NCBI GenBank assembly: GCA_900543095.1
Contig: UQQD01000001.1
Span: forward strand, 41,836-105,835
Length of the DNA stretch: 64,000 nucleotides
Direction: 5' to 3'
Source: an uncultured Ruminococcus sp.
GTDB taxonomy: Bacteria > Bacillota > Clostridia > Oscillospirales > Acutalibacteraceae
Shown: in pieces, positions 31,085 through 52,543 of the stretch
Numbering within the stretch: position 1 is the first letter of the stretch
Layout of the letters: every line of letters begins with the position of its first letter
Made by a program: the position numbers and the translations under genes
The notes under the pieces: model-generated
The model's database searches: none
Seen by the model: only the letters and a program-made list of their open reading frames with translations
Told to the model about the DNA's origin: nothing

Positions 31085-31087
31085 TAA

Positions 31088-31336: not shown

Positions 31337-31341
31337 AAAAT

Positions 31342-31944: not shown

Positions 31945-32093
31945 TTTATATCTCCTTGCATTATTTATTAGGTGATTCCCATATATTTATATTATCAATT
32001 AATGAAAGTGTTGTCAACAGAATTTATGTCATATTAGGTAAGAATAAGTAATAATTAGATAGAATTTTTGTTTTCCGAATTTTTAAAACGGTA

Positions 32094-32122
32094 TTGACAT
32101 ACTTTTTGTAAAATAATAAAAT
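32094..32122 (+). promoter_or_regulatory. Sigma-A type promoter for the large dockerin protein gene
   Basis: TTGACA, 17 nt, TAAAAT. Confidence 0.5.
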
Positions 32123-32130
32123 TTAATTGG

Positions 32131-32290
32131 ATGATTTTAACCGGAGCAACTTTCTTATTTGTTTGCAGGTCAGAGCCTGCGACAGACTGCAAACAGTGCA
32201 GGTAGCATTATTCTCTCAGGTTTTCAGAGGAAGGTATCTGTATTTAGGCCATTATCGCCACTGATATATGCTCTTAGGTTATATTTATGC
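32131..32290 (-). repeat. Family-1 modular element, copy J (minus strand, upstream of the 31944 zinc-ribbon gene, antisense to the plus-strand leader)
   Basis: Reverse complement reads AAATATAACCTAAGAGCAT ... TGCACTGTTTGCAGTCTGTCGCAGGCTC ... TTGCTCCGGTTAAAATCAT. Confidence 0.6.
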
Positions 32291-32305
32291 TTAAGGAGAT
32301 CTTTT

Positions 32306-35926: not shown

Positions 35927-35928
35927 CT

Positions 35929-36076
35929 TAAGTGCAAGTGACACCTGCCTCTAATTGCATTGCTGATTGTGGGTAAGTCGGAACATTTCTGCAATTTAAA
36001 AGCAAAGGGACTGTCGCATTTAGTGCAGAGCAAAGAAAACGCTTTCTGCATATAAATGCTACAGCCCCTTTTTGGT
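35929..36076 (+). repeat. Family-2 element, copy H (CTTAAGTGCAAG start, long hairpin GGGACTGTCGCATTTA...TAAATGCTACAGCCCC + T-run)
   Basis: It shares its 5' start with family 1 and ends in a terminator-like hairpin. An inverted homolog lies at 50020-50145. Confidence 0.6.
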
Positions 36077-36123
36077 GTAGGGTTTTGTTGAAAATATTGC
36101 CGAAATATGCTACAATATTAAAA

Positions 36124-37119
36124 TCAGATGTTAAGGAAGTCGAAGATGTATTTATAATATTCTTCAATTATAGGATTTGAGCAGGTAAAAATCGTGTGGT
36201 TTGCGTTTTTAATGGTTACAAGCCGACAGTTTTTGAGCCTTTTTGCAAGTTGGTGCTGAGGCTTTAACTTAACTACCTTGTCATTTTCCGCACTTATGAT
36301 AAGCACGTTTGTTTTAATCTTTGAGTCGAGTTTTCGGTTTAATATCTGATTTTTAACGCTCATAGACTCCATTACCCAACTGTTTGTGGGATAATTGTTT
36401 TGATAGTTTTTATCGTAAATATGAAAGAACAGCGTCCTGCGAAACCTGCTCAGGCTTAATGTAGGGTCTGAAAGCACCTGAGAGCTCGGGTTTGGATTTT
36501 TATCCTTTGCCTGCCTGAACCTTGCGTTCCAGCCGTCCTCTTCTGCGTATTTTTTGAGAGATTTGCGAACAAGGAACGCAGGAATATTGCTGGTTTGTGG
36601 AAACACAAGCGGAGATGAGAGCACTGCCTTTTGAATAGTATCGCCGTGCTTTTGAAGATAGAGCATAGCGACCGCTCCGCCCATTGAATGGGTATAGAGC
36701 CATATCGGCAGGCTTTTAAATCGTGGAAGCACAACCTCATTCATAATCTGTTCAAGGTCTGATACATAGTCAAAGAAATCGTTGATATGAGCAAGGCTTA
36801 TGTCATTAACCTCACGTCCCGATATTCCGTGACCTCTTTGGTCATAGATAAAGACATTACAGCCCATATTTAAAAAGTACCAGATATTTTCTTCGTACTT
36901 TTTCATAAATTCTGTAAAACCGTGCAATATAACGACAGTTGCTGCTGCATTTTCGGCTTCGTAATATTTGTAGCGGATAACGCAGTTGTTTTTAGCGTTT
37001 ATACTGCCGCTGTTTTCATAATTTTCAAGAGCTTTGCTGATTTTTTCTATTTTATCGGTAAACTCTTTTTCAGGTATTATTTCATATTTGTGATCAGGCT
37101 TAAAAAGCATTTTATTCAC
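36124..37119 (-). CDS. Alpha/beta hydrolase (lysophospholipase/monoglyceride lipase-like)
   Basis: HGFTE oxyanion region and HSMGG nucleophile elbow. Confidence 0.7.
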   Translation of the reverse strand: MNKMLFKPDHKYEIIPEKEFTDKIEKISKALENYENSGSINAKNNCVIRYKYYEAENAAATVVILHGFTEFMKKYEENIWYFLNMGCNVFIYDQRGHGISGREVNDISLAHINDFFDYVSDLEQIMNEVVLPRFKSLPIWLYTHSMGGAVAMLYLQKHGDTIQKAVLSSPLVFPQTSNIPAFLVRKSLKKYAEEDGWNARFRQAKDKNPNPSSQVLSDPTLSLSRFRRTLFFHIYDKNYQNNYPTNSWVMESMSVKNQILNRKLDSKIKTNVLIISAENDKVVKLKPQHQLAKRLKNCRLVTIKNANHTIFTCSNPIIEEYYKYIFDFLNI

Positions 37120-37163
37120 TCCGATATATTATAGATTAAAACACCGAAAAATGGGGAACAATA

Positions 37164-38111
37164 ATGGTATTCCGTAAGGTAAAGTTAAATGTAAAAAAGG
37201 TTTTGAGGAATATTTTAGTTATTGTTTTAGCCGTTTTAATGTGCAACCTTGTGCTTACCAAAATCGTATATGACTCCTGCTTCGGACGTCAGGACTCCGT
37301 AAAAGCGGAGAGCATACCGAGTGAGCTTTCGCAGATGATTTCTTCACGCCGTCAGCTTGGATTTTTGTCGGGTAAAAATACCCTTTCCGCATATTACTAT
37401 CAGGGCAAAAACAACCGTGCGCTTGTTGTGCTTGCTCCGGGCTATACAGCCGGAGCGGATGATTACCTATGGCAGATAAACAGCCTTCTCAGCGACGGCT
37501 ACGGTGTGTTTGCCTTTGATTCTACGGGCAGCTTTAACAGCGGAGGAAGCTCGTCTGTGGGATTTTCGCAGGAGCTTTGCGACCTTGGTGCCGCCCTTGA
37601 ATATATTGAAGAAAACGCAAAATTCGGCTACAAAAGCCTTGTGCTTTTCGGTCACAGCAGAGGCGGTTATGCCGCCGCTTGCATAAGCAGGTTCGGTCAT
37701 AGTGCCGATGCGGTAATCAGCGTTTCGGGGGTCAACAGCGCAATGGAGGGAATTATGGATTCCTCCGTTCGCAGAATCGGCACAATCGCCTATGCAAATT
37801 ATCCTGCACTGTGGTTTTATCAGGCAACGATTTTCGGTATGGATATTATTAATGTCTGCGCCGACGAGGAAATCTCGTCAAACGATACGCCGACGCTTAT
37901 TATTCACGGAAAAAACGATACAAAGCTTCCGTATGATGAATTCTCTATTATTTCTCACCGTGAAGAGATAACAAACAAAAACGCCCGTTACCTGCTTTGG
38001 GACGGTGACGGAAACGACGGTCACACAAGCATTTTGTTTGACAAAAACGGTAAGGCTAACGCCGAACTTATGGAAGAAATAAATGATTTTATAAAACAGA
38101 GCATAACTTAA
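37164..38111 (+). CDS. Membrane-anchored alpha/beta hydrolase
   Basis: N-terminal TM segment and a GHSRGG nucleophile elbow. Confidence 0.6.
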   Translation: MVFRKVKLNVKKVLRNILVIVLAVLMCNLVLTKIVYDSCFGRQDSVKAESIPSELSQMISSRRQLGFLSGKNTLSAYYYQGKNNRALVVLAPGYTAGADDYLWQINSLLSDGYGVFAFDSTGSFNSGGSSSVGFSQELCDLGAALEYIEENAKFGYKSLVLFGHSRGGYAAACISRFGHSADAVISVSGVNSAMEGIMDSSVRRIGTIAYANYPALWFYQATIFGMDIINVCADEEISSNDTPTLIIHGKNDTKLPYDEFSIISHREEITNKNARYLLWDGDGNDGHTSILFDKNGKANAELMEEINDFIKQSIT

Positions 38112-38112
38112 A

Positions 38113-39165
38113 GTGGGGGAAAGTATGGAAGATGTGGTTGTAATACCTGCCTATCAGCCCGACGAGACTCTTGTCAGGCTTGTGGACGAGCTGTATGATA
38201 ACGGCTTTGGAATACTGATAGTTGACGACGGAAGCGGAAAAGGCTACAAAGAGATATTTAACCGAGTAAGCCAAAAGGCGACTGTTATTGCTCATAATGA
38301 AAATCTCGGAAAGGGCGCCGCGTTAAAAACAGGTTTCAAGGCTATAAAAAATATATTTCCCGATTGCAAATATGTGATAACCTCGGATGCGGACGGGCAG
38401 CACCGCATAGGCGATATTCTTCGTGTAAAGCAGGAGCTTCACAATCAATCAACCTTTGTTTTGACCGTGCGAAAACGAAAAAATAAAATTCCGTTTTTGT
38501 CAAGGTTTGGAAACGATTTGTCAAAGATAGTATATACCACGCTGACAAGCCATTATTTTTCCGATAACCAGTCGGGGCTTAGGGGCTTTTCGGCAAAGCA
38601 TCTTGACTGGATTTTGCTCCCAAAGGGAAACAAGTATGACTATGAAATGAATATGCTGTTTTATGCCGACAAGCAGGGTATACCTATAACCACTATTCCG
38701 ATAGAGGCAATTTACATAGACGACAATAAGTCGTCGCATTTTAATCCGCTCAAAGACACCTTCAGGATATACAAATTGCTTTTTTCAAGTGCATGGGCGT
38801 CGTTTGCGGTGGTTGTTCTGTGCGAGATACTTATCGGGCTGATAAGTATATTTTTCGGCGGCAAGTTTATTTACATCACCGTTACGTCGGCAGGAATACT
38901 GTCCGCATTTGTCGGAATAATGCTTAACCGTCTTGTAGTTTTCCGCAAGGTGCACTACGGTGACGGAACACGCACTATTATATATACAATATTGAGATTT
39001 GCAATATATACCGCAGGCTGTATGCTTATGAATATGTATTTTCCAAACATTCCGCTGTTTTTCAGCTTCAACATAGTCGCCGTGCTTTTTGTTCCGCTGA
39101 AATATTATGTAAATAAGGGTATTCATTTTACCGAATACCACGACATAAACAAAGAAAAAGAATAG
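38113..39165 (+). CDS. GT2 glycosyltransferase (DPM1/polyprenyl-phosphate glycosyltransferase-like) with C-terminal GtrA-like TM domain
   Basis: VIPAYQPDE...ILIVDDGSG and a DADGQH motif, with 4 C-terminal TM helices. Confidence 0.75.
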   Translation: MGESMEDVVVIPAYQPDETLVRLVDELYDNGFGILIVDDGSGKGYKEIFNRVSQKATVIAHNENLGKGAALKTGFKAIKNIFPDCKYVITSDADGQHRIGDILRVKQELHNQSTFVLTVRKRKNKIPFLSRFGNDLSKIVYTTLTSHYFSDNQSGLRGFSAKHLDWILLPKGNKYDYEMNMLFYADKQGIPITTIPIEAIYIDDNKSSHFNPLKDTFRIYKLLFSSAWASFAVVVLCEILIGLISIFFGGKFIYITVTSAGILSAFVGIMLNRLVVFRKVHYGDGTRTIIYTILRFAIYTAGCMLMNMYFPNIPLFFSFNIVAVLFVPLKYYVNKGIHFTEYHDINKEKE

Positions 39166-39332
39166 CCTACATCTATATAGCATATCCGTTAATTTGTATG
39201 GACAGCCCTTGCGGCTGTCTGACTGATTTAAATTATCCACATCAATTATAGTATAATAATAAGCTTTTGTCTATCAAAAATTAATCGGTCAGGCTGAAAT
39301 CAGTCTGACCGTTATTTTATGCGGTGTTAAAA

Positions 39333-40304
39333 TTACTTGTTTTTGTCTGAGGCACGCTCAACCCTGATAAGCTGGTCTATACACGCCTTTACGGTTTCTT
39401 CTGTAGAACAGCCGTGCATTTTGATTATAGGCTTTACCGTACCGAGAAACGTTGCTCCGCCGCGCATATTGAGGTCGAACTTCATAGAAAGCGCATTTTG
39501 TATTCTGTCGAAGATCGGGTTGTTTTCTTCGCCGAGTTCGCTCCTGAGGTCGGATACTATCTGCATTGCCGCTTTGCCCGTGGCTTCAACATTTTTAAGA
39601 AGCAGATTGCCCGAAAATCCGTCTGCCACAACAACGTCAACATAATCGGTAAGCAGATCATATCCCTCAATGTTTCCCGCAAAGTTAAGGTCGGATTTTG
39701 CAAGCAGGTCATATGCTTCTTTTGTAAGGTCGTTGCCCTTTTCTTTTTCTCTGCCGACCGACAAAAGCCCGATGCGTGGGGTTTTTACTCCAAACGCAAG
39801 GCGTGCAAATTCAGAGCCGAGTTCGCCGAATTTTACAAAATCAAGTGCTTTGCACGACATTCTTGCTCCGCAGTCAAGCAGGCACACCCAGCCGCCAGAC
39901 GGGGTTGGAAGCGCAGATGAAAGCACGGGAGATTTAAGCCCGTCAACCATTCCGAGTCTGCATATACTGCCGACAAACAGCGCCCCCGTGTTTCCGGGAG
40001 AAAGGCAGGCAAAGCAGTCGTCGTCTTTTTTGAGCCGATCAAGCGAAAGAGCCATTGAAGAATTGTTGCGGTCGTTAAAAATGCAAATCGGCGGATCGTT
40101 GTTTTTGATAGCGTCGTCGGTTTCCATAAGTTCAACCCTGCTATGCTCAATACCGCTTTCGGCAAGACATTTTTCAAATATCCTGCGGTTGCCTGCAATA
40201 ACCGCACCGAATTCATCATAAGATTTAAGAGCTTCAAACGCACCTCTTACGATTATTTCATCGCCCTTGTCGGCACCGTAGGAATCTATTACAATTTTTC
40301 GCAT
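39333..40304 (-). CDS. plsX: Phosphate acyltransferase PlsX
   Basis: MRKIVIDSYGADKG N-terminus and a GNTGALF motif. Confidence 0.8.
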   Translation of the reverse strand: MRKIVIDSYGADKGDEIIVRGAFEALKSYDEFGAVIAGNRRIFEKCLAESGIEHSRVELMETDDAIKNNDPPICIFNDRNNSSMALSLDRLKKDDDCFACLSPGNTGALFVGSICRLGMVDGLKSPVLSSALPTPSGGWVCLLDCGARMSCKALDFVKFGELGSEFARLAFGVKTPRIGLLSVGREKEKGNDLTKEAYDLLAKSDLNFAGNIEGYDLLTDYVDVVVADGFSGNLLLKNVEATGKAAMQIVSDLRSELGEENNPIFDRIQNALSMKFDLNMRGGATFLGTVKPIIKMHGCSTEETVKACIDQLIRVERASDKNK

Positions 40305-40322
40305 ATACCCTCCGATGTTACT

Positions 40323-41963
40323 TTATTCTATTGCAAAAATATAGTCGTAGACCGGCTGTCCGCCATCTAAAAATCCACATTCAAGGAGCGGAAATTCAGC
40401 TTCTATGCGGCTTTTGAGATTTTCCGCCTCATCTATAGTAACGTTTTTACCGAAAAATGCCGTCAAAACTTCCTTTTCATCAATATTCGGAAGATTCTTT
40501 AAAAATTCTGTTACAGCGTCGTTTTTGTTATCGCACGATGAAAGTACCGTATTGCGGTCAAGCCCGATATAACTTCCCTTTTTAATGCTTATACCGTTGA
40601 TTTTAGCGTCACGGGTCGATGTTGTAATAAATCCCGATGTTACATAAGGAAGCCCAAACGACATTCCGTCAATCAGTTCTTCAACCGTTTCTGCGGAGTT
40701 ATTCATCATTGACAGCGCAGAGTAACCCTCGGCTATCGACTTTGTGGCAATAACCCGAACATCGCACTTGCTGTACATTTCTGCGGCCTGTTTAGCCGCC
40801 ATAATTATGTTTGAGTTATTCGGCAAAACGATTATGTGGTCTGCGTCAACGGCGTCAAAAGCCTTTATAAAGTCCTCGGTTGAGGGGTTGTCGGTCTGTC
40901 CGCCGTTTATTATTATATCTGCGCCAATGCCCGAAAAATATGATGAGATACCGCTGCCTGAAGCAACTGCCGCTATGACATACTTTTTATGTTTAGGTTT
41001 TTCGGCTTTCCTGTGAACGGTTTCATTGTGTTGGAGAGCCATATTCTCAATTTTCAGCGTTAAAAACTCGCCGAACCGATGGGCATAAGCAAGCACCTGT
41101 TCGGGGTTAAACGAATGAACGTGAACCTTAACTATGTTTTCGTCCTTGATCGCAACAATAGAATTCCCCAGAGTTTCAAGCTTTTTTATCATAGCGTCAA
41201 GGTCAAAATCGTCTGCACGACCGTCAGAAAACATAAGCTGTAAAATAAACTCCGTACAGTAACCGTATTCAAAGCTGCCGTCATCGGCTAATGCCATTGA
41301 ATTTTGAGTGCTTGCAAAGCCGTTGTGCGGCGTTTCAAAGCCTTTTTCCAATTTTTTGCCTTTAAGGGCAAGCTCCATACCCTCAAAAACAGCAAGAATA
41401 CCGGCTCCGCCGCTGTCAACCACGCCTGCCTCCGCAAGAACGGGCAAAAGCGACGGTGTGGAATCAAGCGATTTTTTCATAACAGGTATAAGAGCGTCAA
41501 AGCACGACTCAAAGCTGTCAAATGTGTTATAATTCTTTAAAAGAAATTCTGCTGCTTCACGAATAACCGTAAGCATAGTTCCCTCAACAGGGTGAGCAAC
41601 CGAGTCGTATGCCTGCTCAACACCGCTCTGCATTGCATTTGCAAAGTCACAAAGCGACATTTCGCAAAGCTCTTTTGCGCCGTTTGAAAATCCTCTTACA
41701 AACTGCGAAAAGATAACGCCCGAATTTCCTCTTGCGGAAAACAACATTCCGCGGGCAAACGTAGTAAGCAATACTCCGACTTTGGGCGATGAAGTATGAT
41801 TTGTAATTCCGCCGTTCATAGTCATTGCCATATTAAGCCCTGTATCGCCGTCGGGAACAGGGAAAACATTCAGCTCATCAACTGCCTGTCGGTTTGCGTG
41901 CAGATAACAGTAACCGTTGTTGAGCATTAATTCAAGAAAATTTCCGTCAATTTTTGTGTGCAT
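40323..41963 (-). CDS. DAK2 domain protein (FakA-like fatty acid kinase subunit), paralog of 21606-23288
   Basis: VFPVPDGDTGLNM motif. Encoded adjacent to two DegV genes and plsX. Confidence 0.8.
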   Translation of the reverse strand: MHTKIDGNFLELMLNNGYCYLHANRQAVDELNVFPVPDGDTGLNMAMTMNGGITNHTSSPKVGVLLTTFARGMLFSARGNSGVIFSQFVRGFSNGAKELCEMSLCDFANAMQSGVEQAYDSVAHPVEGTMLTVIREAAEFLLKNYNTFDSFESCFDALIPVMKKSLDSTPSLLPVLAEAGVVDSGGAGILAVFEGMELALKGKKLEKGFETPHNGFASTQNSMALADDGSFEYGYCTEFILQLMFSDGRADDFDLDAMIKKLETLGNSIVAIKDENIVKVHVHSFNPEQVLAYAHRFGEFLTLKIENMALQHNETVHRKAEKPKHKKYVIAAVASGSGISSYFSGIGADIIINGGQTDNPSTEDFIKAFDAVDADHIIVLPNNSNIIMAAKQAAEMYSKCDVRVIATKSIAEGYSALSMMNNSAETVEELIDGMSFGLPYVTSGFITTSTRDAKINGISIKKGSYIGLDRNTVLSSCDNKNDAVTEFLKNLPNIDEKEVLTAFFGKNVTIDEAENLKSRIEAEFPLLECGFLDGGQPVYDYIFAIE

Positions 41964-41966
41964 AGA

Positions 41967-42857
41967 TTATTCTCTTCCCTCTATTGTAACTTCTTTGCCT
42001 ACGCAAAACGCAATTACTGCGCCCGGACCCACAGATGCGCCCACGATAGTTGTTATGTAGTTCATATAACAGTCCTTAAATTTTGTGAGCTTTAGGATTT
42101 CATCGCGAAGCTGCTGTGCTTCTGTCAAAGAATCGGAATGTGAAATATACAGCGTCTGTTGTTCGGGGTCAACAACCGTTGCGGCAATCTCGGCGGCAAT
42201 TTCTCTTTTTGCGTTAAGCGAGCCCTTGACCTTTTTTGTGGCATAATTCTGACCGAGCTTGTCTGAAATGAGTATGGGCTTTACACCGAAAAGGTTTCCG
42301 AAAAAAGCACTTGACGCAGTAACTCTGCCAGCACGTTTCAGATACGACAGTGTACCTGCCGTGCCAAACTGATTTACCCTGAGTCGGTTATCTTCAATAT
42401 ATTTTGCAGCTTCGGCTGCTGATTTTCCTTCGCTTCTGAGTTGAGCGGCACGGATTGCAAGATAGCCTTGTCCGAGCGAGCTGATAAGCGAATCTACACA
42501 ATATATGTTTCTTTCGGGATATTGCTCTTTAAGCTCGGCGGCAACGACCTTTGCTATATTTATCGAACCCGAAAGTGCAGATGAGCATGATATATAGATA
42601 ATATCCTGTCCCTGTTCAAGTGACTTTGTAAATTCCGAGCGGAAGTTTTCGGCAGGTACCTGGGTTGTGCGGATACGCACACCGTTCCTCATCAAATCAT
42701 AAAAATCCTTTGGGGAATGGCTTTCCCAGTCAAGGGAAGCCACATATTCCGTTTCGTCAATGACATAATTCATTGCAACGTATTTTATTCCGTATTGTTC
42801 ACGGAGGTTTTTATCAAGATCGCAGGTGGAGTCTGCAAAAATTGCATAATTGTTCAT
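41967..42857 (-). CDS. DegV family fatty-acid-binding protein (FakB-like)
   Basis: MNNYAIFADSTCDL N-terminus, with the start taken at MNNY with RBS. Confidence 0.8.
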   Translation of the reverse strand: MNNYAIFADSTCDLDKNLREQYGIKYVAMNYVIDETEYVASLDWESHSPKDFYDLMRNGVRIRTTQVPAENFRSEFTKSLEQGQDIIYISCSSALSGSINIAKVVAAELKEQYPERNIYCVDSLISSLGQGYLAIRAAQLRSEGKSAAEAAKYIEDNRLRVNQFGTAGTLSYLKRAGRVTASSAFFGNLFGVKPILISDKLGQNYATKKVKGSLNAKREIAAEIAATVVDPEQQTLYISHSDSLTEAQQLRDEILKLTKFKDCYMNYITTIVGASVGPGAVIAFCVGKEVTIEGRE

Positions 42858-42873
42858 TTGTAATCCCTCGTTT

Positions 42874-43821
42874 TTATTTGCCTGACTTAACCGAGGCTTC
42901 AATTTCAGCCATAATTTTCTTTTCCTGTTCAAGGTTTTCACTTATCTTTGTGCCCTGATAGAATGCTGCACAAAGTCCGGGTCCTATGCTTGAGCCGCAC
43001 GCCATACCAACAGGATTGATTATGACCTCACGGGGTGAAAAGCGTTCTTTTATCATATTCGCAAGCATATTCGCAAATTCCTTGCGTTCGGAATGTGCAA
43101 CGAAAATAATTTGCTCCTCGGGATTGATAATGGTCTTTTCCATATATTTTATTGTCATATCAAAGGCGGTTTTCTTACCCTTTGCTTTTACAATAACCTC
43201 CGAAAGTCCTTTGTCGTTAAAATCCGCCATCGGATTAACGCCGACGAGTGTTCCGAAAAGCGCTTTAAAATTTGATATTCTTCCTGTTTTTACCAAAAAG
43301 AACAAATCGTCCATTGCGCCCATCTGATGTACGGTATGTTTTGTGTTTTCTATATATTCAAAGGTTTCTTCTATTGTTGCTCCCTCGCTGCGCTTTTCGC
43401 ACGCCATTACAACCAACAATGCAAGCGCTGTGGAATAACGCAGAGAATCAATGCAAAATATTTTGCGTTCGGGATATTTTTTTTGCAGTTCTTTTGCAAC
43501 CATAACGCTTTCGTTATATGTTGCTGAAAGTCCCGATGAAATGGATATGCTGAGTACATCTTTGCCTGCGGCAAGGTTTTTTTCAAATATTTCCGTCATT
43601 TGTCCTACGGGAACGCTTGCTGTTTTGTACAGCATTTTACGTCCTTTCATTGACGAATAGTATTCATCGGGCGTCATCTTGCTCCAGTCAAGATCAATGT
43701 CCTCGCAATGTCCGTCCGGGAAATAGATGATTCCTTTCAGATAGTCGTCAATCCCAAAACGTTTTCTGAGCTCCGCCGAAAGATCGCATGAGGAATCGGG
43801 TATGATTGCAAAATTGTTCAT
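42874..43821 (-). CDS. DegV family fatty-acid-binding protein (FakB-like)
   Basis: MNNFAIIPDSSCDL N-terminus. Confidence 0.8.
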   Translation of the reverse strand: MNNFAIIPDSSCDLSAELRKRFGIDDYLKGIIYFPDGHCEDIDLDWSKMTPDEYYSSMKGRKMLYKTASVPVGQMTEIFEKNLAAGKDVLSISISSGLSATYNESVMVAKELQKKYPERKIFCIDSLRYSTALALLVVMACEKRSEGATIEETFEYIENTKHTVHQMGAMDDLFFLVKTGRISNFKALFGTLVGVNPMADFNDKGLSEVIVKAKGKKTAFDMTIKYMEKTIINPEEQIIFVAHSERKEFANMLANMIKERFSPREVIINPVGMACGSSIGPGLCAAFYQGTKISENLEQEKKIMAEIEASVKSGK

Positions 43822-44069
43822 ATTATGGTACTCCTTTTAAAAAAATAAAAAAACACTGCCAAAAATTAATGCACTATAACTCTAATTGCAGCATTTGTAT
43901 TATATCATAATAGATAAACTATTTCAACATATTTTGACTATATATGGCTTGAAAAAGGCAGTTATCCGACAAAATACCGCCTTCGGATAATTTTTATTTT
44001 TTATTTGTTGAAATAGTTTGAATGTTCTGCTAAAATAAATTTATATACGCCTTATTCGGAGGATTTAAG

Positions 44070-45023
44070 ATGTGGTGGATAATACTGATAATTATATTAG
44101 CCGTTTTATTAATAGGGGGCTTTGCGGCTATGCTGTTTGTAACCGTTCCGATTGCAAAACGCGTGTATTTTGACACGCTTGTAAGGGACAAGCCCGACAA
44201 ATGGGGGCGTGTTTGTTCGGATACCACAAACGAAGAACAGGTTGCTATGTGGAACGACGGCTGCAAATGGGCTGAACAAAACAAAAGCTGTATGCAGGAG
44301 GTCAGAATTGAAAACGACGGATTAAAGCTGTACGGAGAATATTACGACTTTGGCGGCGAAGGCTGCGTTATAATTTTGCCCGGCAGGTGCGAAAGCCTGA
44401 AATACTCTTATTATTTTGCGCCGCCGTATCAAAAAAGCGGCTGTAATGTGCTTGTAATTGATACCCGTGCTCACGGAAAAAGCGAGGGTATGTATAATAC
44501 AATAGGCACAAAGGAGAGCGGAGACCTTATCAAATGGGTTAATTTTCTTGAAGAGAATTATAAAATACGCAAAGTTTATTTTCATTCAATCTGCGTGGGA
44601 ACATCAACCGCAATGATTGTTATGACGTCGGAAAACTGTCCGAAATCGGTAAAAGGTCTTGTGACCGAGGGTTGTTTTGTTTCGTTTCGTGAGTGTTACA
44701 GAACGCATATGATATATGAAAACCGTCCTTTGTTTCCTGTTCTTGACCTTGTAATGCTATATATTCGCAGGTACGCCCACTCAAAGCTGACGCGTCAGGC
44801 GCCGATAAGGCTTGTCAAAAATATCGACCTGCCGATTTTGTTTTTATTCGGCAGGCAAGACGTGTTCTCACTGCCCGAAAAAAGCAAAAGGATTTTTGCC
44901 GCCTGCAAATCCGAGAATAAAAAAATTGTATGGTTCGACAAGGGTTCACATTCGCACCTGAGAATAAATAATATTGAAAAATATGATGATTCAGTCTGCG
45001 ATTTTATCGGCAGTATAAAATAA
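44070..45023 (+). CDS. Membrane-anchored alpha/beta hydrolase
   Basis: N-terminal TM segment and a HSICVGTS nucleophile elbow. Confidence 0.6.
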   Translation: MWWIILIIILAVLLIGGFAAMLFVTVPIAKRVYFDTLVRDKPDKWGRVCSDTTNEEQVAMWNDGCKWAEQNKSCMQEVRIENDGLKLYGEYYDFGGEGCVIILPGRCESLKYSYYFAPPYQKSGCNVLVIDTRAHGKSEGMYNTIGTKESGDLIKWVNFLEENYKIRKVYFHSICVGTSTAMIVMTSENCPKSVKGLVTEGCFVSFRECYRTHMIYENRPLFPVLDLVMLYIRRYAHSKLTRQAPIRLVKNIDLPILFLFGRQDVFSLPEKSKRIFAACKSENKKIVWFDKGSHSHLRINNIEKYDDSVCDFIGSIK

Positions 45024-45041
45024 CAGGAGCAGTATAATAAA

Positions 45042-46997
45042 ATGAAAAAATATTTGAGAGATTATCTAGATTATAACGACAGTCATCTTGCAAACTCGTC
45101 AAAAGACCTTAAAACCGTTTTTGAGATAATGTTTCGATGCAAGGACAGCATAATTGCGGAGGCAACCGAAAACTACCGCATACGCCGTTATACATACGGT
45201 GAAACAGAAGCGAGGATTAACCGTTCTGCATATGCGCTTTACCAAAAAATCGGTGCAACGCACAAATACGTCGGTCTTGAGATGGAAAACAAAATCGAAT
45301 GGATAATTGCGTTTTGGGCGATACTCAAAAGCGGCAACAAGCCGTATCTCATAAATTGTCGGCATCCGCTTGCGCTTTCGTCGCAGATAATATCCTCGCT
45401 GAATATAAAATATGTTATCGGTACTTCTCCGACAAAGCTAAAGGCAGAATATATCGACTTTTCAGAGATTAGCGGCGAAGACGTTGAGATACCGAGTGAC
45501 TTTGACCTTGAAAAACTGTTTGAGAACGAAATCGCAATTTCAACGTCTGCAACCTCTCTGCACGGCGTGGTGTGCTTTTATACAGGCAGAGAGATTTCCG
45601 ACCAGATACTTAACGCAAAGGATATTCTTAAAAATTCAAAGCGAATGGCTTATCATTACAAGGGCAGTTTAAAGCAACTTGCATTTTTGCCGTTTTATCA
45701 TGTGTTTGGCTTGTTTGCGGTTTATTTTTGGTTTATTTTCTTTGGCAGAACGCTTGTGTTTTTGCCCGATTACTCGCCGAAATCAATTTTACAGACGTGT
45801 CAAAAGCATGAGGTAACTCATATATTTGCCGTGCCGATGCTTTGGCATACTATTGAAAAGGAGCTTACCGAAGAAATTAAAAAGCGCGGTGAAAAGCAGG
45901 AAAAGAAGTTTTATAAGGGTATAAAAATATGTACAAAAATTCAGGACATTGCCCCGTTTTTGGGAGTTAAGCTTTCTCAGCGCATAATGAGCCAAGTCAC
46001 CGACGAGCTTTTCGGAAAATCGGTCAGGTTTTGTATAAGCGGCGGAAGCTACCTAAAGGATTCGACTATGAAGCTGTTTAACGGAATAGGCTATCCCCTG
46101 CACAACGGCTACGGTATGAGCGAAATAGGCATAACCTCAGTTGAACTCAGGCACAAGGCGAGCGAACGCAACGAAAACTCAATCGGACACCCGTTTTCAT
46201 CGGTTGAGTACAAAATCTCAGACAAGGGAACCTTGCTTGTAAGAGGTAAGTCTATCTGTAAGCGTATGTTGATTGACGGCAAAGAGATCACCACGGGCGA
46301 ATGGTTTGATACGGGCGATATTATGGAGTGCCGCAACGGCAATTATTATATCAAAGGGCGTATGAGCGATGTCATAATCGGCTCAAACGGCGAAAATATA
46401 AATCCCGATATTTTGGAGCAGATGTTTGACCTGCGGTATGTCAGCAGATTTTCTGTTCTCGGGTTTGATGATAACGGCGAAGAGGAATTGACCATAGTGG
46501 TTGAGATAAGTCCGAATATCAACAAAGAACAGCTTGACTCTGTTATAAATCATATTAACAAAATAAACAATTCATTACCGCTTGCTTCACAAATAACAAG
46601 GTTTTATTTTACATATGACCCCATTGCCGCAAACGGTGCAATAAAAGTAGGACGCCAATACGTTTCCCGTGCGGTAAAGTCGGGCAAGGTCAGGCTGATA
46701 CCGTTTTCAGAAATTTACAGCGAAGCCTCAGCACACAAGGAGCTTAGCTCGCAGTATGCTGAAAGAGTCAGAAAAATCGTTGCAAAAACCATGTCGATCG
46801 ACGAAAGCGAGGTTGGCGATGATATGCACGTCATTCACGACCTCGGAGCGACAAGCCTGCAGTATTTTGCAATCTTGCTTGCCGTTGCAGATGATTTCGG
46901 CATTGAAAACTGGTCTGAAAAAGACCCGTATTGCTACACAATAAGAGAATTTTGCAGTTATTTGGAAGGTCATTTAAAAAATGAAACAAAAGGTTAA
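45042..46997 (+). CDS. AMP-dependent synthetase (acyl-ACP synthetase/FAAL-like) fused to C-terminal carrier-protein domain
   Basis: YGMSEIG and other adenylation core motifs, plus a C-terminal DLGATSLQY phosphopantetheine-site-like motif. Confidence 0.7.
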   Translation: MKKYLRDYLDYNDSHLANSSKDLKTVFEIMFRCKDSIIAEATENYRIRRYTYGETEARINRSAYALYQKIGATHKYVGLEMENKIEWIIAFWAILKSGNKPYLINCRHPLALSSQIISSLNIKYVIGTSPTKLKAEYIDFSEISGEDVEIPSDFDLEKLFENEIAISTSATSLHGVVCFYTGREISDQILNAKDILKNSKRMAYHYKGSLKQLAFLPFYHVFGLFAVYFWFIFFGRTLVFLPDYSPKSILQTCQKHEVTHIFAVPMLWHTIEKELTEEIKKRGEKQEKKFYKGIKICTKIQDIAPFLGVKLSQRIMSQVTDELFGKSVRFCISGGSYLKDSTMKLFNGIGYPLHNGYGMSEIGITSVELRHKASERNENSIGHPFSSVEYKISDKGTLLVRGKSICKRMLIDGKEITTGEWFDTGDIMECRNGNYYIKGRMSDVIIGSNGENINPDILEQMFDLRYVSRFSVLGFDDNGEEELTIVVEISPNINKEQLDSVINHINKINNSLPLASQITRFYFTYDPIAANGAIKVGRQYVSRAVKSGKVRLIPFSEIYSEASAHKELSSQYAERVRKIVAKTMSIDESEVGDDMHVIHDLGATSLQYFAILLAVADDFGIENWSEKDPYCYTIREFCSYLEGHLKNETKG

Positions 46998-47643
46998 ACA
47001 AAGCGATATTATTACGGCTTTTGTAAAGGTCACGGGGTTTCCTGCGGCGCTTCTGTTTTATAAGCCCAAGGTGGTTTATCAGGATGAAAATATGAAGAAA
47101 AGTAAGCTGCCGAAGCCGTTTATACTTGTGTCAAATCATACATCTCTGCTTGATTTCCCTCTTTATTTGTTTGTATTCTTTAAAAGGAACATCAGATTTC
47201 TGATGGCGGAGGTGCTGTTTACAAAAAATCCTTTTCTCTCAAGACTTTTATATAGGTTGGGCGGAATTTTTGTTGACAGGGACGCATTTAAATTCGGCTT
47301 TATGGGGGAGGCCCTTGAAGCGCTTGACAGCGGCAAAAGCGTGGGAGTGTTTCCACAGGGACGTCTGCCGATAAACGGCAAGCCGTTTCCGTTCAAGCCG
47401 AGTGCGGCGTTTATTGCAATGCATACCGATGCGCTCATAGTGCCTGTTTATACCGACGGTAACTACGGAATTTTTAAACGCACTCACGTTATGATAGGCA
47501 GAGAAATAAATATAAACGAGCTTTGCCCAAAGAATCTCGGCGACGCCGAAAAAATTGAGATTATGACAAAAAAGCTTGAGGAGCTTGTGTTCAGCCTCGG
47601 CGATGAATTAAAGGACAGATTGGATAAGAAAAATGCAGAATAA
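46981..47643 (+). CDS. PlsC-family lysophospholipid acyltransferase
   Basis: NHTSLLD H(x)4D motif and a FPQGR motif. Confidence 0.75.
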   Translation: MKQKVKQSDIITAFVKVTGFPAALLFYKPKVVYQDENMKKSKLPKPFILVSNHTSLLDFPLYLFVFFKRNIRFLMAEVLFTKNPFLSRLLYRLGGIFVDRDAFKFGFMGEALEALDSGKSVGVFPQGRLPINGKPFPFKPSAAFIAMHTDALIVPVYTDGNYGIFKRTHVMIGREININELCPKNLGDAEKIEIMTKKLEELVFSLGDELKDRLDKKNAE

Positions 47644-48298
47644 AAACAGCAAAAAGTCAAAGATTTTTGATGTTCGGTTTTTTCCGATGGATATGGCAAG
47701 GTTTTTTATGATGCTGATGTTTCCGTTTTTAAGAGTAAAAAAACTTGGGCTTGACGGAAAACGCTATAAGATTAATTTTGACGGCGGAGCAATTCTTGCG
47801 GCAAATCATATCGGATTTACCGATCCGCTGACTATATCGGTTGCGTTTTGGTTCAGGCGTGTGTTTTTTTTGGTGGCAGAGGTTTTGATGAAGAACAGGT
47901 TCTTAGCTTTTTGGCTGAAAAAGGCGGGCTGTATTAAAATCGACAGAAATAGCACTGATATTGAAGCCGTAAGAAAATCGGTAAACGTGCTTAAAAACGG
48001 CAAACTGCTTTTGATTTTTCCCCAGGGATATATTGTGCGGGACGGTGAAATCAACAGCCTTAAATCAGGCGCAGTACTAATGGCAATGCAGGCAGGCGTG
48101 CCGATAATTCCTATGTATTCGGACAAAAGAAGTCATAAATTCGGCTTTCGCAGAATAATTATCGGTGAACCGCTTTTTTGCTCGGAGTATTGCAAAAGGA
48201 AAATGCCATCGGTTACGGAAATGAATAATATTTCAGAAATACTGCTCCAAAAGATAGATGAATGTAAAATTGTTTTTGAAAAAACAGAAAGGATTTAA
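47633..48298 (+). CDS. PlsC-family lysophospholipid acyltransferase (second copy)
   Basis: NHIGFTD H(x)4D motif and a FPQGY motif. Confidence 0.75.
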   Translation: MQNKNSKKSKIFDVRFFPMDMARFFMMLMFPFLRVKKLGLDGKRYKINFDGGAILAANHIGFTDPLTISVAFWFRRVFFLVAEVLMKNRFLAFWLKKAGCIKIDRNSTDIEAVRKSVNVLKNGKLLLIFPQGYIVRDGEINSLKSGAVLMAMQAGVPIIPMYSDKRSHKFGFRRIIIGEPLFCSEYCKRKMPSVTEMNNISEILLQKIDECKIVFEKTERI

Positions 48299-48301
48299 AT
48301 T

Positions 48302-48553
48302 ATGGATAGACTCGAAAAACTTAAAAGTATATTTGCAGATCTGTTCGGCGAAGATATAGACCTTGACAAGGTTGACGAAAGCTCAAAATTTGTTGAAGAT
48401 CTCGGAATAAATTCAATAGGACTGCTGTCTATGGCTATGGATATTGAGCAGGAATTCGATATTAAGTTCTGCAACGAAGATTTTGAAAATTTACGCACGG
48501 TAGGGGACGTCATAAAGTGTATTGAAAACAAGAAACAGAACAAAAAATGTTGA
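48302..48553 (+). CDS. Acyl carrier protein
   Basis: 83 aa with a DLGINSIGLL Ser attachment motif. Confidence 0.7.
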   Translation: MDRLEKLKSIFADLFGEDIDLDKVDESSKFVEDLGINSIGLLSMAMDIEQEFDIKFCNEDFENLRTVGDVIKCIENKKQNKKC

Positions 48554-48578
48554 CTTTTGTCATAAAATAAAATATAAT
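48550..48578 (+). promoter_or_regulatory. Sigma-A type promoter
   Basis: TTGACT, 17 nt, TATAAT. Confidence 0.5.
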
Positions 48579-48608
48579 GTTATTAATTGATTTTATGGAG
48601 GTATTATT

Positions 48609-49139
48609 ATGATTTGTCCTAATTGCGGAAATCAAATTGCAGACGGTACAGCTTTCTGCACAAACTGCGGCACACAGCTGAATAATGCTGCTCCCGAACA
48701 GCCTGCTCAGAATTATCAGCAGCCGGTTCAAAATTACCAACAACCGGCTCAGAGCTACCAACAGCCTGCTCAAAACTATCAGCAGCCGGTTCAAAACTAT
48801 CAACAGCCGGTTCAAAACTATCAACAGCCGGTTCAGCCTACGCTTATGAACGCAGAGAACCCTACTGCCGGCAAGGCTCTTGCACTCGGTATTGTTTCAC
48901 TTTGCCTTTGCTGGTTGCCTGTTGCAAGCATTATACTCGGCATATTCGCAATAAAAGCAGGTAATGAAACGCTTGCATATTCCAATCAGGGCTACAACAA
49001 ACGTCCGATGGGAATTATCGCAAAGATATTCGGTATCGTAAGTATAATTGTTTGTTCAATAATGACAATTTATTGGTTAATATTTATTATTGCTATTTGC
49101 GTTGCCGGCTCATACGCCACAACTTACTACTACTATTAA
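48609..49139 (+). CDS. Zinc-ribbon protein with QNYQQP(V/A) repeats and C-terminal DUF4190-like membrane domain
   Basis: CPNCG...CTNCG, a 7-fold repeat, and two TM helices. It is a paralog of the 31342-31944 protein. Confidence 0.55.
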   Translation: MICPNCGNQIADGTAFCTNCGTQLNNAAPEQPAQNYQQPVQNYQQPAQSYQQPAQNYQQPVQNYQQPVQNYQQPVQPTLMNAENPTAGKALALGIVSLCLCWLPVASIILGIFAIKAGNETLAYSNQGYNKRPMGIIAKIFGIVSIIVCSIMTIYWLIFIIAICVAGSYATTYYYY

Positions 49140-49200: not shown

Positions 49201-49317
49201 CAAAGAAGGCTCTATGTCAATAGTTGGGGTAAACCCGAAAAAGAAGAATTGAAATGAACAAGCGATAGTAAGTCAAGCTGTCGCTTGTTTTTTCATTTGG
49301 TGAGAAAACATATGTAA

Positions 49318-50001
49318 AATACGAATCTCAACGAAGGCTTACAGGCTGTCGGAGAGGGCGCATTCTTCTCAATAGGAGATATAAAAACCATTACAATTCC
49401 CGCAAGCGTTACATATATCGGTGATAACGCAATCGGCTACTATCCGCCCGAACACGATAATCCGTTTGTTCCGTCCGAGGTCATTCCGAATTTTATAATC
49501 TATGGAACAAGCGGCACTGAGGCTCATACTTATGCCGAGAAAAACGGAATTCAGTTTAACAGCGTTGCAATGGGAACAACTGTTAAAGGCACTGCAAAAA
49601 GTTACCTGTCAGAAAGCGATGCGGTTAAAATCCAACTTATAAAATCCGGTGCGATAGCGTATGAAACAACCGTAAAAGGCAACGTTTCCGACTATTCAAT
49701 CGCAGGCGTCGCAAACGGAACATACACAATGAAAGTTTCTAAAAATGCCCACGCCGACAGAGAATATACAGTAAAAGTTTCAAGCGCCGATGTAACGCAA
49801 AATGTTGAAATATTCCCGATGGGTGATGTAAACAACGACGGCTTTATCACTATTCTTGATGCAACTCTTGTGCAGAAGTATTTGGCTAAAGTAATAAATG
49901 AGGACTCCCTTGCGCTGGATAACGCCGATTTTGACTCAGACGATATTGTAAGAATTAATGATGCTACGGCTATTCAAAAAAACTTGCAAAAGCAGATATA
50001 A
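49318..50001 (+). pseudogene. 5'-truncated BspA-like leucine-rich-repeat + dockerin surface protein remnant
   Basis: The frame is open from the stop at 49315 and encodes LRR (GAFxxxxxIKTITIPASVTYIGDNA) before any ATG. The first ATG is at 49570. A C-terminal dockerin is present. Confidence 0.4.
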
Positions 50002-50244: not shown

Positions 50245-51093
50245 ATGAATAGTTTAGCAAAAAAAATCATTTCGGTATGTATTGCATTAGTTGTGCTGAT
50301 GTCTGTATCTGTTACCGCATTTGCGGCAGATGACATTCTTGATATTAACGACGGTGCAAAGGTTAATGTCGGCGACAGAGTTAAGTATACGCTTTATCTT
50401 GCCGATACAAAAGAGGAAATTATAGGTTTTGAGCTTCGGCTTTTCTATGATAAGGATTACCTTGAGCTTGACAAAAAATCTCTTGAATTTGACAAGTTTG
50501 ACGGTGTTATCTATAATACAGACCTTGATAATATGATTCCAATCAACTGGACTAATATCAGTAACCCCGCCGATTTTTCAAAGAAAGCAATGTTTTTGTC
50601 GCTTGAATTCAGAGTTCTGAAAGAGGGCGAAACTGATATTTCTCAATTTGTGTCAGAAATGTACGGCGATGATATGACATATCTTAAATCATACACATGG
50701 ACATATGACATCAGCGTAAATGATGAAACCGTTGTTTCGGATCAAGTCCCGATAATCAGCGAAGATGAGGATACGCTGAAAAACAGACAAGGCAGCTTCA
50801 TTAATTATCTTGACGGTAAAGGTGAGGAAAACACACCCGATAAGGATAATCACCCTGCTGTAATCAGTTATACACAAAATGTTACGGATATTGTTGAAGT
50901 AACAAAGAATTCAAGCTCAGGCGGCAATTCCGCCGATTCGGATTTTCCGCTTATCCCGGTAATAATCGGTGCTGCCGTTTTGGTAGTGGTTCTTGCAGTT
51001 GTCGGTGTTTTGATTGTGAAAAAGCGTGATGATAATGTGGATTTATCCGCAATTCCGACTCAACAGGACGAGAATAATAAAAAATCCGACTAA
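50245..51093 (+). CDS. Cohesin-like domain protein with Ser/Asp-rich linker and C-terminal TM anchor
   Basis: Signal peptide, a beta-sandwich-like segment (GFELRLFYDKDYLELD...INWTN), and a C-terminal TM + KKRDD. Confidence 0.45.
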   Translation: MNSLAKKIISVCIALVVLMSVSVTAFAADDILDINDGAKVNVGDRVKYTLYLADTKEEIIGFELRLFYDKDYLELDKKSLEFDKFDGVIYNTDLDNMIPINWTNISNPADFSKKAMFLSLEFRVLKEGETDISQFVSEMYGDDMTYLKSYTWTYDISVNDETVVSDQVPIISEDEDTLKNRQGSFINYLDGKGEENTPDKDNHPAVISYTQNVTDIVEVTKNSSSGGNSADSDFPLIPVIIGAAVLVVVLAVVGVLIVKKRDDNVDLSAIPTQQDENNKKSD

Positions 51094-51222
51094 TTGCACA
51101 AAAATCGACATCAACTTTATTGAAAATTAATTAATATTTTTTTTAAAAATTATTGATTTTTTGACAAAGCTGATATATAATTAAACTAACCGAATTATCG
51201 GAAAATGTATGGAGGAAAAATT

Positions 51223-52503: not shown

Positions 52504-52543
52504 TACGATGAATTAATATGGAATGATATTGGAGGAAAAGGTA

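Follow-up and report, generated by a model that had tools for sequence, protein, structure and literature searches.

A conserved gene set of gut and rumen Clostridia, probably a lipid-acylation system with two acyl-donor routes

The use of exogenous fatty acids by Gram-positive bacteria is currently explained by a single route, Fak-PlsX-PlsY/PlsC, and Staphylococcus aureus is described as having 'no orphan acyltransferases' for lysolipid re-acylation (PMC10404611). The LplT/Aas system, also described in that paper, is reported as Gram-negative (PMC11416262). We have analysed a stretch of 64,000 nucleotides from an uncultured Ruminococcus sp. (contig UQQD01000001.1; hereafter the window), in which fatty acid kinase (Fak) and PlsX genes lie next to an operon encoding a hydrolase, a ligase fused to a carrier protein domain (ligase-CP), two acyltransferases (AT1 and AT2) and an acyl carrier protein (ACP). 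Positions 36124-49139 probably, if not securely, make up one conserved lipid-acylation system of gut and rumen Clostridia, with two acyl-donor routes and (lyso)glycerolipids as predicted acceptors. Literature searches returned no description of this gene combination, and what is new is thus a conserved, apparently insulated arrangement of known enzyme families. A second dedicated gene set of this kind is carried by many uncultured Oscillospiraceae, Lachnospiraceae and Ruminococcus-like bacteria, where it is annotated only generically.

Like LplT-Aas, the locus combines a PlsC-family acyltransferase bearing the HX4D motif with an ANL-type fatty-acid activator, and it would work through an acyl-phosphopantetheine thioester; related (sister) loci add a transporter of the major facilitator superfamily (MFS). 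As a parts list, the split Aas proposed in the original prediction is confirmed, the acyltransferases matching the Aas-type acyltransferase domain and both an ANL ligase and a carrier being present. The differences are nevertheless numerous. Acyltransferase and ligase are separate proteins here, the ligase is fused to its carrier whereas the bifunctional Aas of Escherichia coli (2-acyl-GPE acyltransferase and acyl-ACP synthetase) borrows AcpP, and there are two acyltransferases plus a standalone ACP. Sequence scores reach just 28-34 bits against an Aas equivalog cut-off of 886, and the equivalog level of models NF005959 and NF006386 is not reached (28-72 bits, cut-offs 886 and 1221). The transporter of the sister loci is of the MFS_2/GPH type and not of the LplT family. 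Finally, the host belongs to the Gram-positive Clostridia and the genes are linked with those for Fak, PlsX, lipases and an enzyme of the LRAT type.

The other close precedent is the FakAB-PlsX/AcpB system of Enterococcus faecalis. AcpB, whose gene shares a transcript with plsX, is fully acylated by PlsX with acyl-phosphates as donors, the ACP of fatty acid synthesis being a poor acceptor. In that work it represses fatty acid synthesis via FabT, a role in lipid synthesis being left open (PMC6509188). It is the direct precedent for PlsX working in the direction from acyl-phosphate to ACP. In both cases a kinase would supply the acyl-phosphate and PlsX would transfer the acyl group to a second ACP, distinct from that of fatty acid synthesis and encoded near plsX. 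Unlike in E. faecalis, FakA is here duplicated, one copy belonging to a distinct subfamily, PlsX is divergent and in other loci a ligase takes its place. Moreover, the ACP gene shares a divergent operon with a PlsC-type acyltransferase gene of its own, and the ACP is therefore probably an acyl donor.

A third group of systems, the fatty-acid-amide (FAA) clusters of gut Clostridia, which resemble nonribosomal peptide synthetase (NRPS) clusters, also uses a stand-alone adenylating enzyme to load an exogenous fatty acid on a dedicated ACP, from which it passes to an acceptor (OaaA/OaaACP/OaaC; PMC13310621). The present locus differs from them by its PlsC-family acyltransferases, its ligase-carrier fusion and its Fak, PlsX and lipase genes, and it has no condensation domain. 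Membership in the clostridial FAA clusters is ruled out, no Condensation-domain match being found in the open reading frames scanned between 28427 and 53602.

The features of the locus are collected in Table 1. Open reading frame listing and profile searches reproduce the coordinates and domains given earlier for the nine genes and the three upstream of them.

Table 1. Features of the locus, and the FakA comparator located elsewhere in the window (TM, transmembrane)
Feature	Positions	Strand	Remarks
PldB-like alpha/beta hydrolase, soluble	36124-37119	-	Peripheral member
ABH2, TM-anchored Ser alpha/beta hydrolase	37164-38111	+	Peripheral member
GT2 membrane glycosyltransferase	38113-39165	+	Pfam Glycos_transf_2; peripheral member
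Terminator-like hairpin, GT2/PlsX convergent gap	39286-39311	.	Stem of 11 pairs, 7 G-C
PlsX-like, divergent	39333-40304	-	PF02504, 234 bits
FakA-2	40323-41963	-	Dak2, FakA-like_M, FakA-like_C; TIGR03599, 533 bits (cut-off 396)
FakB (DegV) a	41967-42857 (longest open reading frame to 42941)	-	TIGR00762, 215.6 bits (cut-off 99.7)
FakB (DegV) b	42874-43821	-	TIGR00762, 201.1 bits (cut-off 99.7)
Divergent promoter region	43898-44037	.	Two mirrored promoter-like sites
Cys alpha/beta hydrolase, N-terminal TM helix	44070-45023	+	
Ligase-CP (AMP-binding and PP-binding fusion)	45042-46997	+	
AT1, PlsC-family	46981-47643	+	PF01553, 77 bits; HTSLLD, FPQG
AT2, PlsC-family	47633-48298	+	PF01553, 80 bits; HIGFTD, FPQG
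Standalone ACP, 83 aa	48302-48553	+	PP-binding, 43 bits; Ser in DLGINS
Zn-ribbon two-TM membrane protein	48609-49139	+	Zn_Ribbon_1, 2.4e-9; possible accessory gene
FakA-1, housekeeping-type	21567-23288	+	Directly upstream of recG (23344-25479); outside the system, comparator

Within the two operons, genes overlap by 17 and 11 nt or are separated by gaps of 3-18 nt, and a terminator scan finds no terminator-like site at the junctions inside either of them, only weak intragenic consensus hits. The 248-bp spacer between the operons contains promoter-like sites. Co-transcription of each operon is thus plausible from these signals.

The evidence that carries the one-system reading is the conservation of the gene set. 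Relatives of ligase-CP were drawn from species-representative genomes, contigs with selected homologues and metagenome contigs, and the components were mapped by tblastn and, for the ACP, with a hidden Markov model. This gives 92 non-redundant loci (designated by L numbers), whose ligases are 35-82% identical to that of the window, and the co-occurrence called for by the original prediction is found, the components being linked to the ligase across this set. In the 28 loci that are well flanked (at least 5 kb on both sides), the following are present within 10 kb of the ligase: acyltransferase in 100%, FakA or FakB in 82%, the Cys-hydrolase in 79%, ACP in 75%, LRAT or an LRAT-phosphopantetheinyl transferase fusion in 61%, MFS_2 in 46%, PlsX in 43%, GT2 in 25%, the PldB-like hydrolase in 18%, and ABH2 and a CE4 deacetylase in 14% each. 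The invariant core consists of ligase-CP and AT1, usually accompanied by Fak and a hydrolase of the lipase type. Every member sampled is from a metagenome-assembled genome (MAG) or a metagenome and bears a generic annotation, and a look-up of cultured hosts gave MAGs only. The closest genome locus (82% ligase identity), together with dockerin-bearing neighbours of the island, suggests a cellulolytic, Ruminococcus-like host of the Oscillospiraceae.

Gene order is heavily shuffled between loci, the same components being regrouped around the ligase, for example as 'CysABH> FakB< FakA> PlsX> Lig> AT> AT> ACP> LRAT>', 'FakB> FakA> MFS2> Lig> AT> CysABH>' or 'Lig> MFS2> AT> AT> Lig2> ACP> LRAT/PPT>'. 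Four loci (L023, L025, L031 and L092) hold a complete 12-gene block like that of the window, and the ligase module of L108 is inverted. The Fak and ligase genes can be divergent, co-directional or inverted with respect to each other, and MFS_2 can be inserted between FakB and FakA. This conserved but rearranged synteny also upholds the suggested extension of the island to GT2 and the two upstream hydrolases. A separate observation is L107 (GCA_054287765.1), in which a Fak/PlsX/Cys-hydrolase/deacetylase/GT2/hydrolase block with a phosphopantetheinyl transferase has no ligase module within 10 kb; the Fak/PlsX module and the ligase module are hence separable.

It could be argued that the Fak/PlsX and ligase/acyltransferase/ACP operons are unrelated and were brought side by side by chance or inheritance, as Fak and PlsX are common in Firmicutes and close relatives share gene order by descent. 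This explanation is very improbable and effectively refuted. A FakA gene is expected within 10 kb of a given gene by chance in about 1-2% of cases (an estimate for 1-2 FakA genes per genome), to be set against the 82% observed; the linkage survives numerous rearrangements and is still seen at 35% ligase identity; and ACP and PlsX are gained and lost together. Because linkage persists at such distances, despite rearrangement and far above chance, the Fak/PlsX and ligase operons are best regarded as one system. The original prediction had placed the Fak pathway next to a neighbouring operon: the adjacency is real, but the two separate units give way to one integrated system.

The Fak genes of the island are not the only ones in the window. 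Their assignment, and that of PlsX, on the minus strand is corroborated by Pfam and NCBIfam profiles, which they reach at the subfamily level only in the case of the Fak proteins: FakA-2 scores 462.7 bits against NF038248 (FakA_VfrB, cut-off 975), and the two FakBs 104 and 87 bits against NF038249 (FakB1, cut-off 350). FakA-2 has all three FakA domains (Dak2, middle and C-terminal) and the DGDTG motif, contained in PVPDGDTGLNM. FakB a and b are paralogues, 34% identical; FakB a likely starts at 42857, with an ATG preceded by GAGGG, and its orthologues are 294-296 aa long. Annotation of the rest of the window reveals another FakA gene that had been overlooked (FakA-1, Table 1). It lies directly upstream of recG, which we take to be the canonical Firmicute yloV-recG position. 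The three Pfam domains of FakA-1 (FakA-like_C 256.6, Dak2 140.5 and FakA-like_M 106.5 bits) all exceed those of FakA-2; the two proteins are 33.6% identical and their genes 17,035 bases apart (23288 to 40323). The cluster-linked FakAs of other loci all score higher against FakA-2 than against FakA-1 (32/32). The presence of the recG-linked copy indicates that the island Fak is a dedicated paralogue, which by these scores belongs to a cluster-linked subfamily distinct from the housekeeping FakA.

These results bear on the possibility that housekeeping PlsX, PlsC, AcpP and Fak are merely clustered here with an accessory ligase, no dedicated system being involved. PlsX, a PlsC-like enzyme, ACP and Fak do form the standard phosphatidic-acid toolkit of Firmicutes (PMC6509188), and the annotation for other copies of the genes covered the window only. 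We nonetheless find this explanation quite improbable: the second FakA stands in the recG context 17 kb away while the island copy falls in a separate cluster-linked subfamily, PlsX, ACP and both acyltransferases are below equivalog cut-offs, some PlsX-like members are left as 'hypothetical' by NCBI, PlsX and ACP are missing from many family loci and can be replaced by a ligase, and module content differs between genomes.

The PlsX-like protein matches TIGR00182 with 237.1 bits, narrowly under the equivalog cut-off of 243.4, and it is members of its subfamily that the NCBI pipeline in part calls 'hypothetical protein'. Its homologues at 47-50% identity on long contigs sit inside the same system, and the best 120 homologues (at least 47% identity) apparently all belong to the island subfamily. 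Similarly, the standalone ACP retains the PP-binding domain and its Ser, but scores 51.4 bits against TIGR00517 (AcpP equivalog, 70.45) and has an INS-I motif instead of DSL.

The relationship between ACP and its possible loaders was followed in 27 loci with at least 5 kb upstream and at least 6 kb downstream of the ligase, which are non-redundant (24 groups at 70% ligase identity). Besides PlsX, the possible loaders include Lig2, a second, standalone ligase with a canonical P-loop, usually encoded directly before ACP. ACP is accompanied by PlsX in 12 of these loci, by Lig2 in 7 and by neither in 2; 6 loci lack all three, and PlsX or Lig2 without ACP is never observed (0/27; Fisher's exact p=9.5e-5, phylogeny ignored). 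Over the full set, PlsX and Lig2 never occur together (17 of the 92 loci have PlsX only and 13 Lig2 only), and, within clades at >=50% identity, gain or loss of ACP goes with gain or loss of its loader. As ACP co-varies with PlsX or Lig2 and these two are mutually exclusive, PlsX probably loads the private ACP from Fak-made acyl-phosphate, occupying the same slot as an ACP-loading ligase. The earlier assignment of a private ACP to the ligase operon stands insofar as the ACP is dedicated; its partner, in view of this co-variation and of the fused carrier that the ligase owns, is most likely the Fak/PlsX route rather than the ligase.

Both acyltransferases contain PF01553 with the HX4D motif and blocks II-IV, match the acyltransferase domain of Aas-type NCBIfam models and remain under equivalog cut-offs; the sole match outside PlsC/Aas is a weak one of AT2 to the ornithine-lipid synthase OlsF (E=0.0026). 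Each of the two acyltransferases forms a stable orthologous group, and AT1 always comes before AT2 (57/57 two-AT loci). AT1 is preceded in every case by ligase-CP (63 cases) or MFS_2 (14 cases), while AT2 has ACP (25 cases) or Lig2 (13 cases) as its downstream neighbour. When only one acyltransferase is present it is AT1 (20/20, 13 of these loci stopping at a contig edge), and all 21 loci with ACP have at least two acyltransferases. These fixed neighbours, and the presence of two or more acyltransferases in every ACP locus, suggest that the cis carrier of the ligase is paired with AT1 and the standalone ACP with AT2. In L026 (6147-13227), AT1 and AT2 are fused into one protein of 439 aa, and the genes after it encode ACP, LRAT, two ABC exporter proteins and a hydrolase resembling palmitoyl-protein thioesterase; the exporter genes hint at export of the product.

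The ligase-carrier architecture is shared by more than 120 homologues at >=50% identity. Ligase motifs A4 (YHVFG), A5 (GYGMSE), A7 (TGD), A8 and A10 Lys535 are invariant across the family, as is the carrier Ser605 in 12 aligned ligase-CP sequences. The P-loop (residues ~166-175) is near-canonical in a distant ligase clade (TSGTTLxxK) and degenerate in the clade of the window (STSATSL, without the usual Gly and Lys). Sequence and profile searches of the PDB return MenE, 4-chlorobenzoate-CoA ligase (CBL), FadD13, Cfl, long-chain acyl-CoA synthetase and FadD10 at the top. Among the matches listed, those to NRPS are limited to partial N-terminal stretches (gramicidin synthase, E ~1e-12), and the NCBIfam matches are mostly long-chain fatty acid ligases. 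The fatty-acyl-type adenylation domain proposed in the original prediction thus agrees with what is found: acyl- and aryl-CoA ligases are closest, and the domain does not cluster with D-alanine or amino-acid ligases. The carrier domain matches AcpP of the fatty acid synthesis type in PDB searches. A Dlt-like system is ruled out, DltA being absent from the 60 PDB matches listed for the ligase-family profile and the DltC model scoring 17 bits against a cut-off of 68.

It is mainly the context of the ligase that leads us to infer a fatty acid substrate, its gene being tightly and recurrently linked to those for a dedicated Fak, acyltransferases of the PlsC type, hydrolases with a lipase fold and PLAAT-type enzymes; we propose that the ligase loads its own carrier. 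That the ligase instead activates a non-fatty acid (aryl, short-chain or hydroxy) to decorate a lipid or polymer, the Fak operon serving a separate purpose, seems improbable. Such an activity would fit the atypical P-loop and the aryl-acid ligases MenE and 4-chlorobenzoate-CoA ligase as closest solved relatives, but these are distant matches with FadD13, long-chain acyl-CoA synthetase and FadD10 close behind, and the same gene context and NCBIfam matches argue against it. The ligase also has an insertion of ~40 residues after motif A4 which presumably resembles that of long-chain ligases.

The hydrolase of the ligase operon had been regarded as a membrane lipase. Its fold is indeed of the monoacylglycerol lipase (MGL)/esterase type, but the nucleophile is Cys and not Ser. 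C175 (in the elbow H-[SG]-I-C-[VI]-G), D264 and H294 are invariant in alignments; of 165 sequences of the family, 154 have Cys as nucleophile and 11 have Ser, and the Asp is present in 165/165. In the AlphaFold2 model (pLDDT 90.8), the triad residues follow strands 5, 7 and 8, the canonical positions, and the fold is closest to those of the Pf2001 esterase, Rv0183 and human MGL. The protein starts with a TM segment (residues 1-32) and contains 12 Cys residues; the charge of the N-terminal helix and these cysteines suggest a cytoplasmic catalytic domain. The Ser forms correspond to a distinct paralogue (YG[VLI]SMG), found divergently upstream of FakB in some loci (the paralogue occurs in L054, L055, L058, L061, L064, L065, L068, L070, L091, L095 and L101), several of which also carry the Cys form.

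Some alpha/beta hydrolases with a Cys nucleophile act as acyltransferases and favour acyl transfer, for example BAAT, by comparison with Ser-type acyl-CoA thioesterases, and PhaC. As in these enzymes, Cys replaces Ser at the nucleophile elbow of the Cys-hydrolase while Asp and His are retained; in contrast to them, no sequence relationship is detectable and the closest folds belong to esterases and monoacylglycerol lipases of the Ser type. By analogy, the Cys-hydrolase may form an acyl-thioester intermediate, and could be: (i) a deacylase or transacylase making or editing lyso-acceptors, or (ii) a proof-reader of the carriers.

The two upstream hydrolases have a Ser nucleophile. That of the PldB-like hydrolase lies in HSMGG (Pfam Hydrolase_4, 1.2e-40; NCBIfam lysophospholipase L2, 3.5e-39, under the equivalog cut-off), and the gene accompanies the module in L003, L023, L025, L034, L035, L041, L042, L056, L092, L107 and L108. 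ABH2 (GHSRGG; TM residues 8-39) matches Hydrolase_4, Abhydrolase_1 and Peptidase_S9 of Pfam, and its homologues adjoin the module in L003, L010, L023, L025, L031, L091, L092, L103, L107 and L108.

Sister loci contain further components. A PLAAT/HRASLS-type LRAT enzyme (NCEHF) is sometimes fused to a 4'-phosphopantetheinyl transferase (PPTase), or a stand-alone Sfp-type PPTase is present; LRAT or PPTase genes lie at 7829-8830 in L010, 13503-13904 in L023, 14748-15335 in L107 and 14837-15385 in L108. MFS_2 is located between Fak and ligase or between ligase and AT1; a PDB sequence search with it gives marginal MelB matches (E=0.006) and no link to Mfsd2a or LplT.

Taken together, these genes probably form two parallel routes for the activation of free fatty acids, each with its own protein-bound thioester carrier. 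In the first, the ANL ligase would adenylate a fatty acid and load it on the fused carrier domain, from which AT1 would transfer the acyl group to the acceptor; this would be an Aas-like mode of working, except that the carrier is here part of the ligase and the acyltransferase a protein of its own. In the second, FakA-2 and the two FakBs would make acyl-phosphate, PlsX would move the acyl group to the private ACP and AT2 would use the resulting acyl-ACP; in other genomes, the standalone Lig2 would substitute for PlsX as the ACP loader. The Cys-hydrolase, the PldB-like lysophospholipase and ABH2 may supply or edit lyso-acceptors by deacylation or transacylation, and would, with the acyltransferases, constitute a remodelling and salvage circuit reminiscent of the Lands cycle. 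The MFS_2 transporter, LRAT/PLAAT-type enzyme and PPTase of sister loci would complete the system. Its purpose would most likely be the uptake of fatty acids and their incorporation into membrane lipids separately from the housekeeping pathway.

The nature of the product depends in part on how GT2 is interpreted. It resembles polyprenyl-phosphate sugar transferases (AglJ 1.3e-17, PpgS 1.4e-16, ArnC 1.5e-8 in NCBIfam, below cut-off). It had been credited with a GtrA domain, for which there is no Pfam match even at E<=0.1; its C-terminus is nonetheless multi-TM (TM-like segments at 219-333). The gene is placed variously among loci and lies inside the cluster in L056, and a CE4 deacetylase adjoins the Cys-hydrolase in nine sister loci (L025, L040, L053, L055, L060, L061, L067, L107 and L108). 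One may thus consider that the same donor chemistry serves a specialised lipid. This might be an (amino)glycolipid that is acylated or N-acylated, a derivative of a polyprenyl-phosphate sugar, or a signalling or surface lipid destined for export. GT2 (with the deacetylase) would build the head group, to which AT1, AT2, LRAT and the Cys-hydrolase would attach acyl chains taken from the private carriers. Operons combining a glycosyltransferase and a deacetylase do make aminoglycolipids, as shown for HexSDF in Clostridioides difficile (PMC10128005) and GpgSDF in Pseudomonas aeruginosa (PMC11483062), and they resemble the sister loci in linking a glycosyltransferase and a CE4 deacetylase to membrane-lipid genes. 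Private carriers, a PPTase and ABC exporters, as in L026, are also typical of specialised-lipid clusters, and MFS_2 belongs to the glycoside-transporter (GPH) family.

We regard this, the main alternative, as rather unlikely, though worth keeping in mind. GT2 and the deacetylase are present in only ~25% and ~14% of well-flanked loci, and the deacetylase is missing from the window, while the invariant core is the ligase-acyltransferase pair described above. The acyltransferases are of the PlsC/Aas type, the OlsF match being weak, and neither a condensation domain nor a GNAT N-acyltransferase is present among the scanned open reading frames. The HexSDF and GpgSDF operons themselves differ from the present locus in several respects: HexS is annotated as of the monogalactosyldiacylglycerol-synthase type whereas the GT2 of the window resembles the polyprenyl-phosphate type, these operons are without acyl-activation or acyltransferase genes, and there is no MprF-like flippase here.

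Several points weigh against a two-route system acylating (lyso)glycerolipids. The evidence is computational throughout: it establishes domain identities, conserved linkage, the paralogy of FakA and the distribution of ACP, PlsX and Lig2, whereas fatty acids as substrates, the direction in which PlsX works, the donor-acyltransferase pairs and the roles of the hydrolases are predictions, and the acceptor lipids are candidates only. GT2 and the deacetylase of sister loci hint at a glycolipid product rather than simple phospholipid repair, and an MFS_2/LplT-like transporter, LRAT and PPTase were not found in the window. Fak-2 occurs in loci without PlsX or ACP (L007, L011, L051, L055 and L061), so that its output cannot pass solely through the private ACP, and, conversely, L033 and L037 have ACP with no loader nearby. 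The statistical association of ACP and loader includes no phylogenetic correction. Finally, the P-loop of the ligase is degenerate in the clade of the window, and the closest solved relatives, at E ~1e-11 to 1e-23, include the aryl-acid ligases MenE and CBL.

With these points in mind, one may tentatively go further and envisage an insulated second lipid-acylation pathway with two orthogonal acyl-donor channels, FakA-2/PlsX/ACP and the self-loading ligase-CP. It is possible, though doubtful, that the two acyltransferases then direct two distinct fatty acids from the diet to defined positions of a lyso-lipid that is imported or made locally. The acceptor might be a breakdown product of plant galactolipids or phospholipids, or else an aminoglycolipid made by GT2 and the deacetylase, suggestions that are just as tentative, and the Cys-hydrolase and LRAT/PLAAT could conceivably be thioester-forming transacylases. 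In such an insulated pathway, a Fak/PlsX pair would for the first time be dedicated to a carrier other than the housekeeping one, and the pathway would be a Gram-positive functional counterpart of the Lands cycle and LplT-Aas.

More generally, if the two-route model is true, it would explain how abundant fibre degraders of the gut and rumen assimilate fatty acids of the diet, or detoxify them, and how they remodel their membranes, and it would assign a role to a large set of proteins now labelled 'AMP-binding' or 'hypothetical'. It predicts that the private ACP is loaded by PlsX, that PlsX and the ligase are interchangeable, and that the carrier of ligase-CP is loaded in cis.

The spacer between the two operons has a symmetrical organisation. 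Its promoter-like sites, which score 11/12 and 10/12 in a promoter scan, both with TG extensions, are mirror images of each other within a 35-nt inverted repeat (77% complementary), and a perfect 14-nt sequence, TGTTGAAATAGTTT, covers each -35 element and is found exactly at these two places only in the window. L002, the locus at 82% identity, retains just the GTTGAAATA core of this 14-mer, and the inverted repeat is not found in the spacers of L023 and L025. An operator at the mirrored promoters is not claimed, given this lack of conservation beyond the core. There is likewise no evidence for a riboswitch or other RNA element in the spacer, which has the mirrored promoter-like sites only, and Rfam and tRNA scans of the window return nothing.

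Directly after ACP, the Zn-ribbon protein has TM segments at residues 87-118 and 132-172 and a Q/P-rich tandem repeat. Its gene has its own promoter-like site (48550-48578) and a terminator-like site (49256-49290), and homologues of the protein flank the ligase module in L002, L003, L005, L036, L048 and L108. A second membrane protein with a Zn-ribbon and a Q/P-rich repeat is encoded at 31342-31944 on the minus strand. Downstream of the island, three consecutive plus-strand open reading frames (50245-51093, 51205-52248 and 52523-53602; 282-359 aa) have no Pfam match at E<=0.1; the first two are likewise found on L027, the contig from which the window is taken.

Further away, genes for an UppP/BacA undecaprenyl-pyrophosphate phosphatase and a PAP2 phosphatase (7287-8246 and 15664-16134) are unlinked to the system in the other loci examined. 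Upstream of the island, 28427-31084 encodes an M4 thermolysin-family metallopeptidase of 885 aa with an FTP propeptide motif. Finally, dockerin type I modules are encoded at 32159-35926, at 49570-50001 and at ~63372-63539 (minus strand), one of them on a 1255-aa protein without any other recognised domain, which indicates that the host is a cellulosome-producing bacterium.

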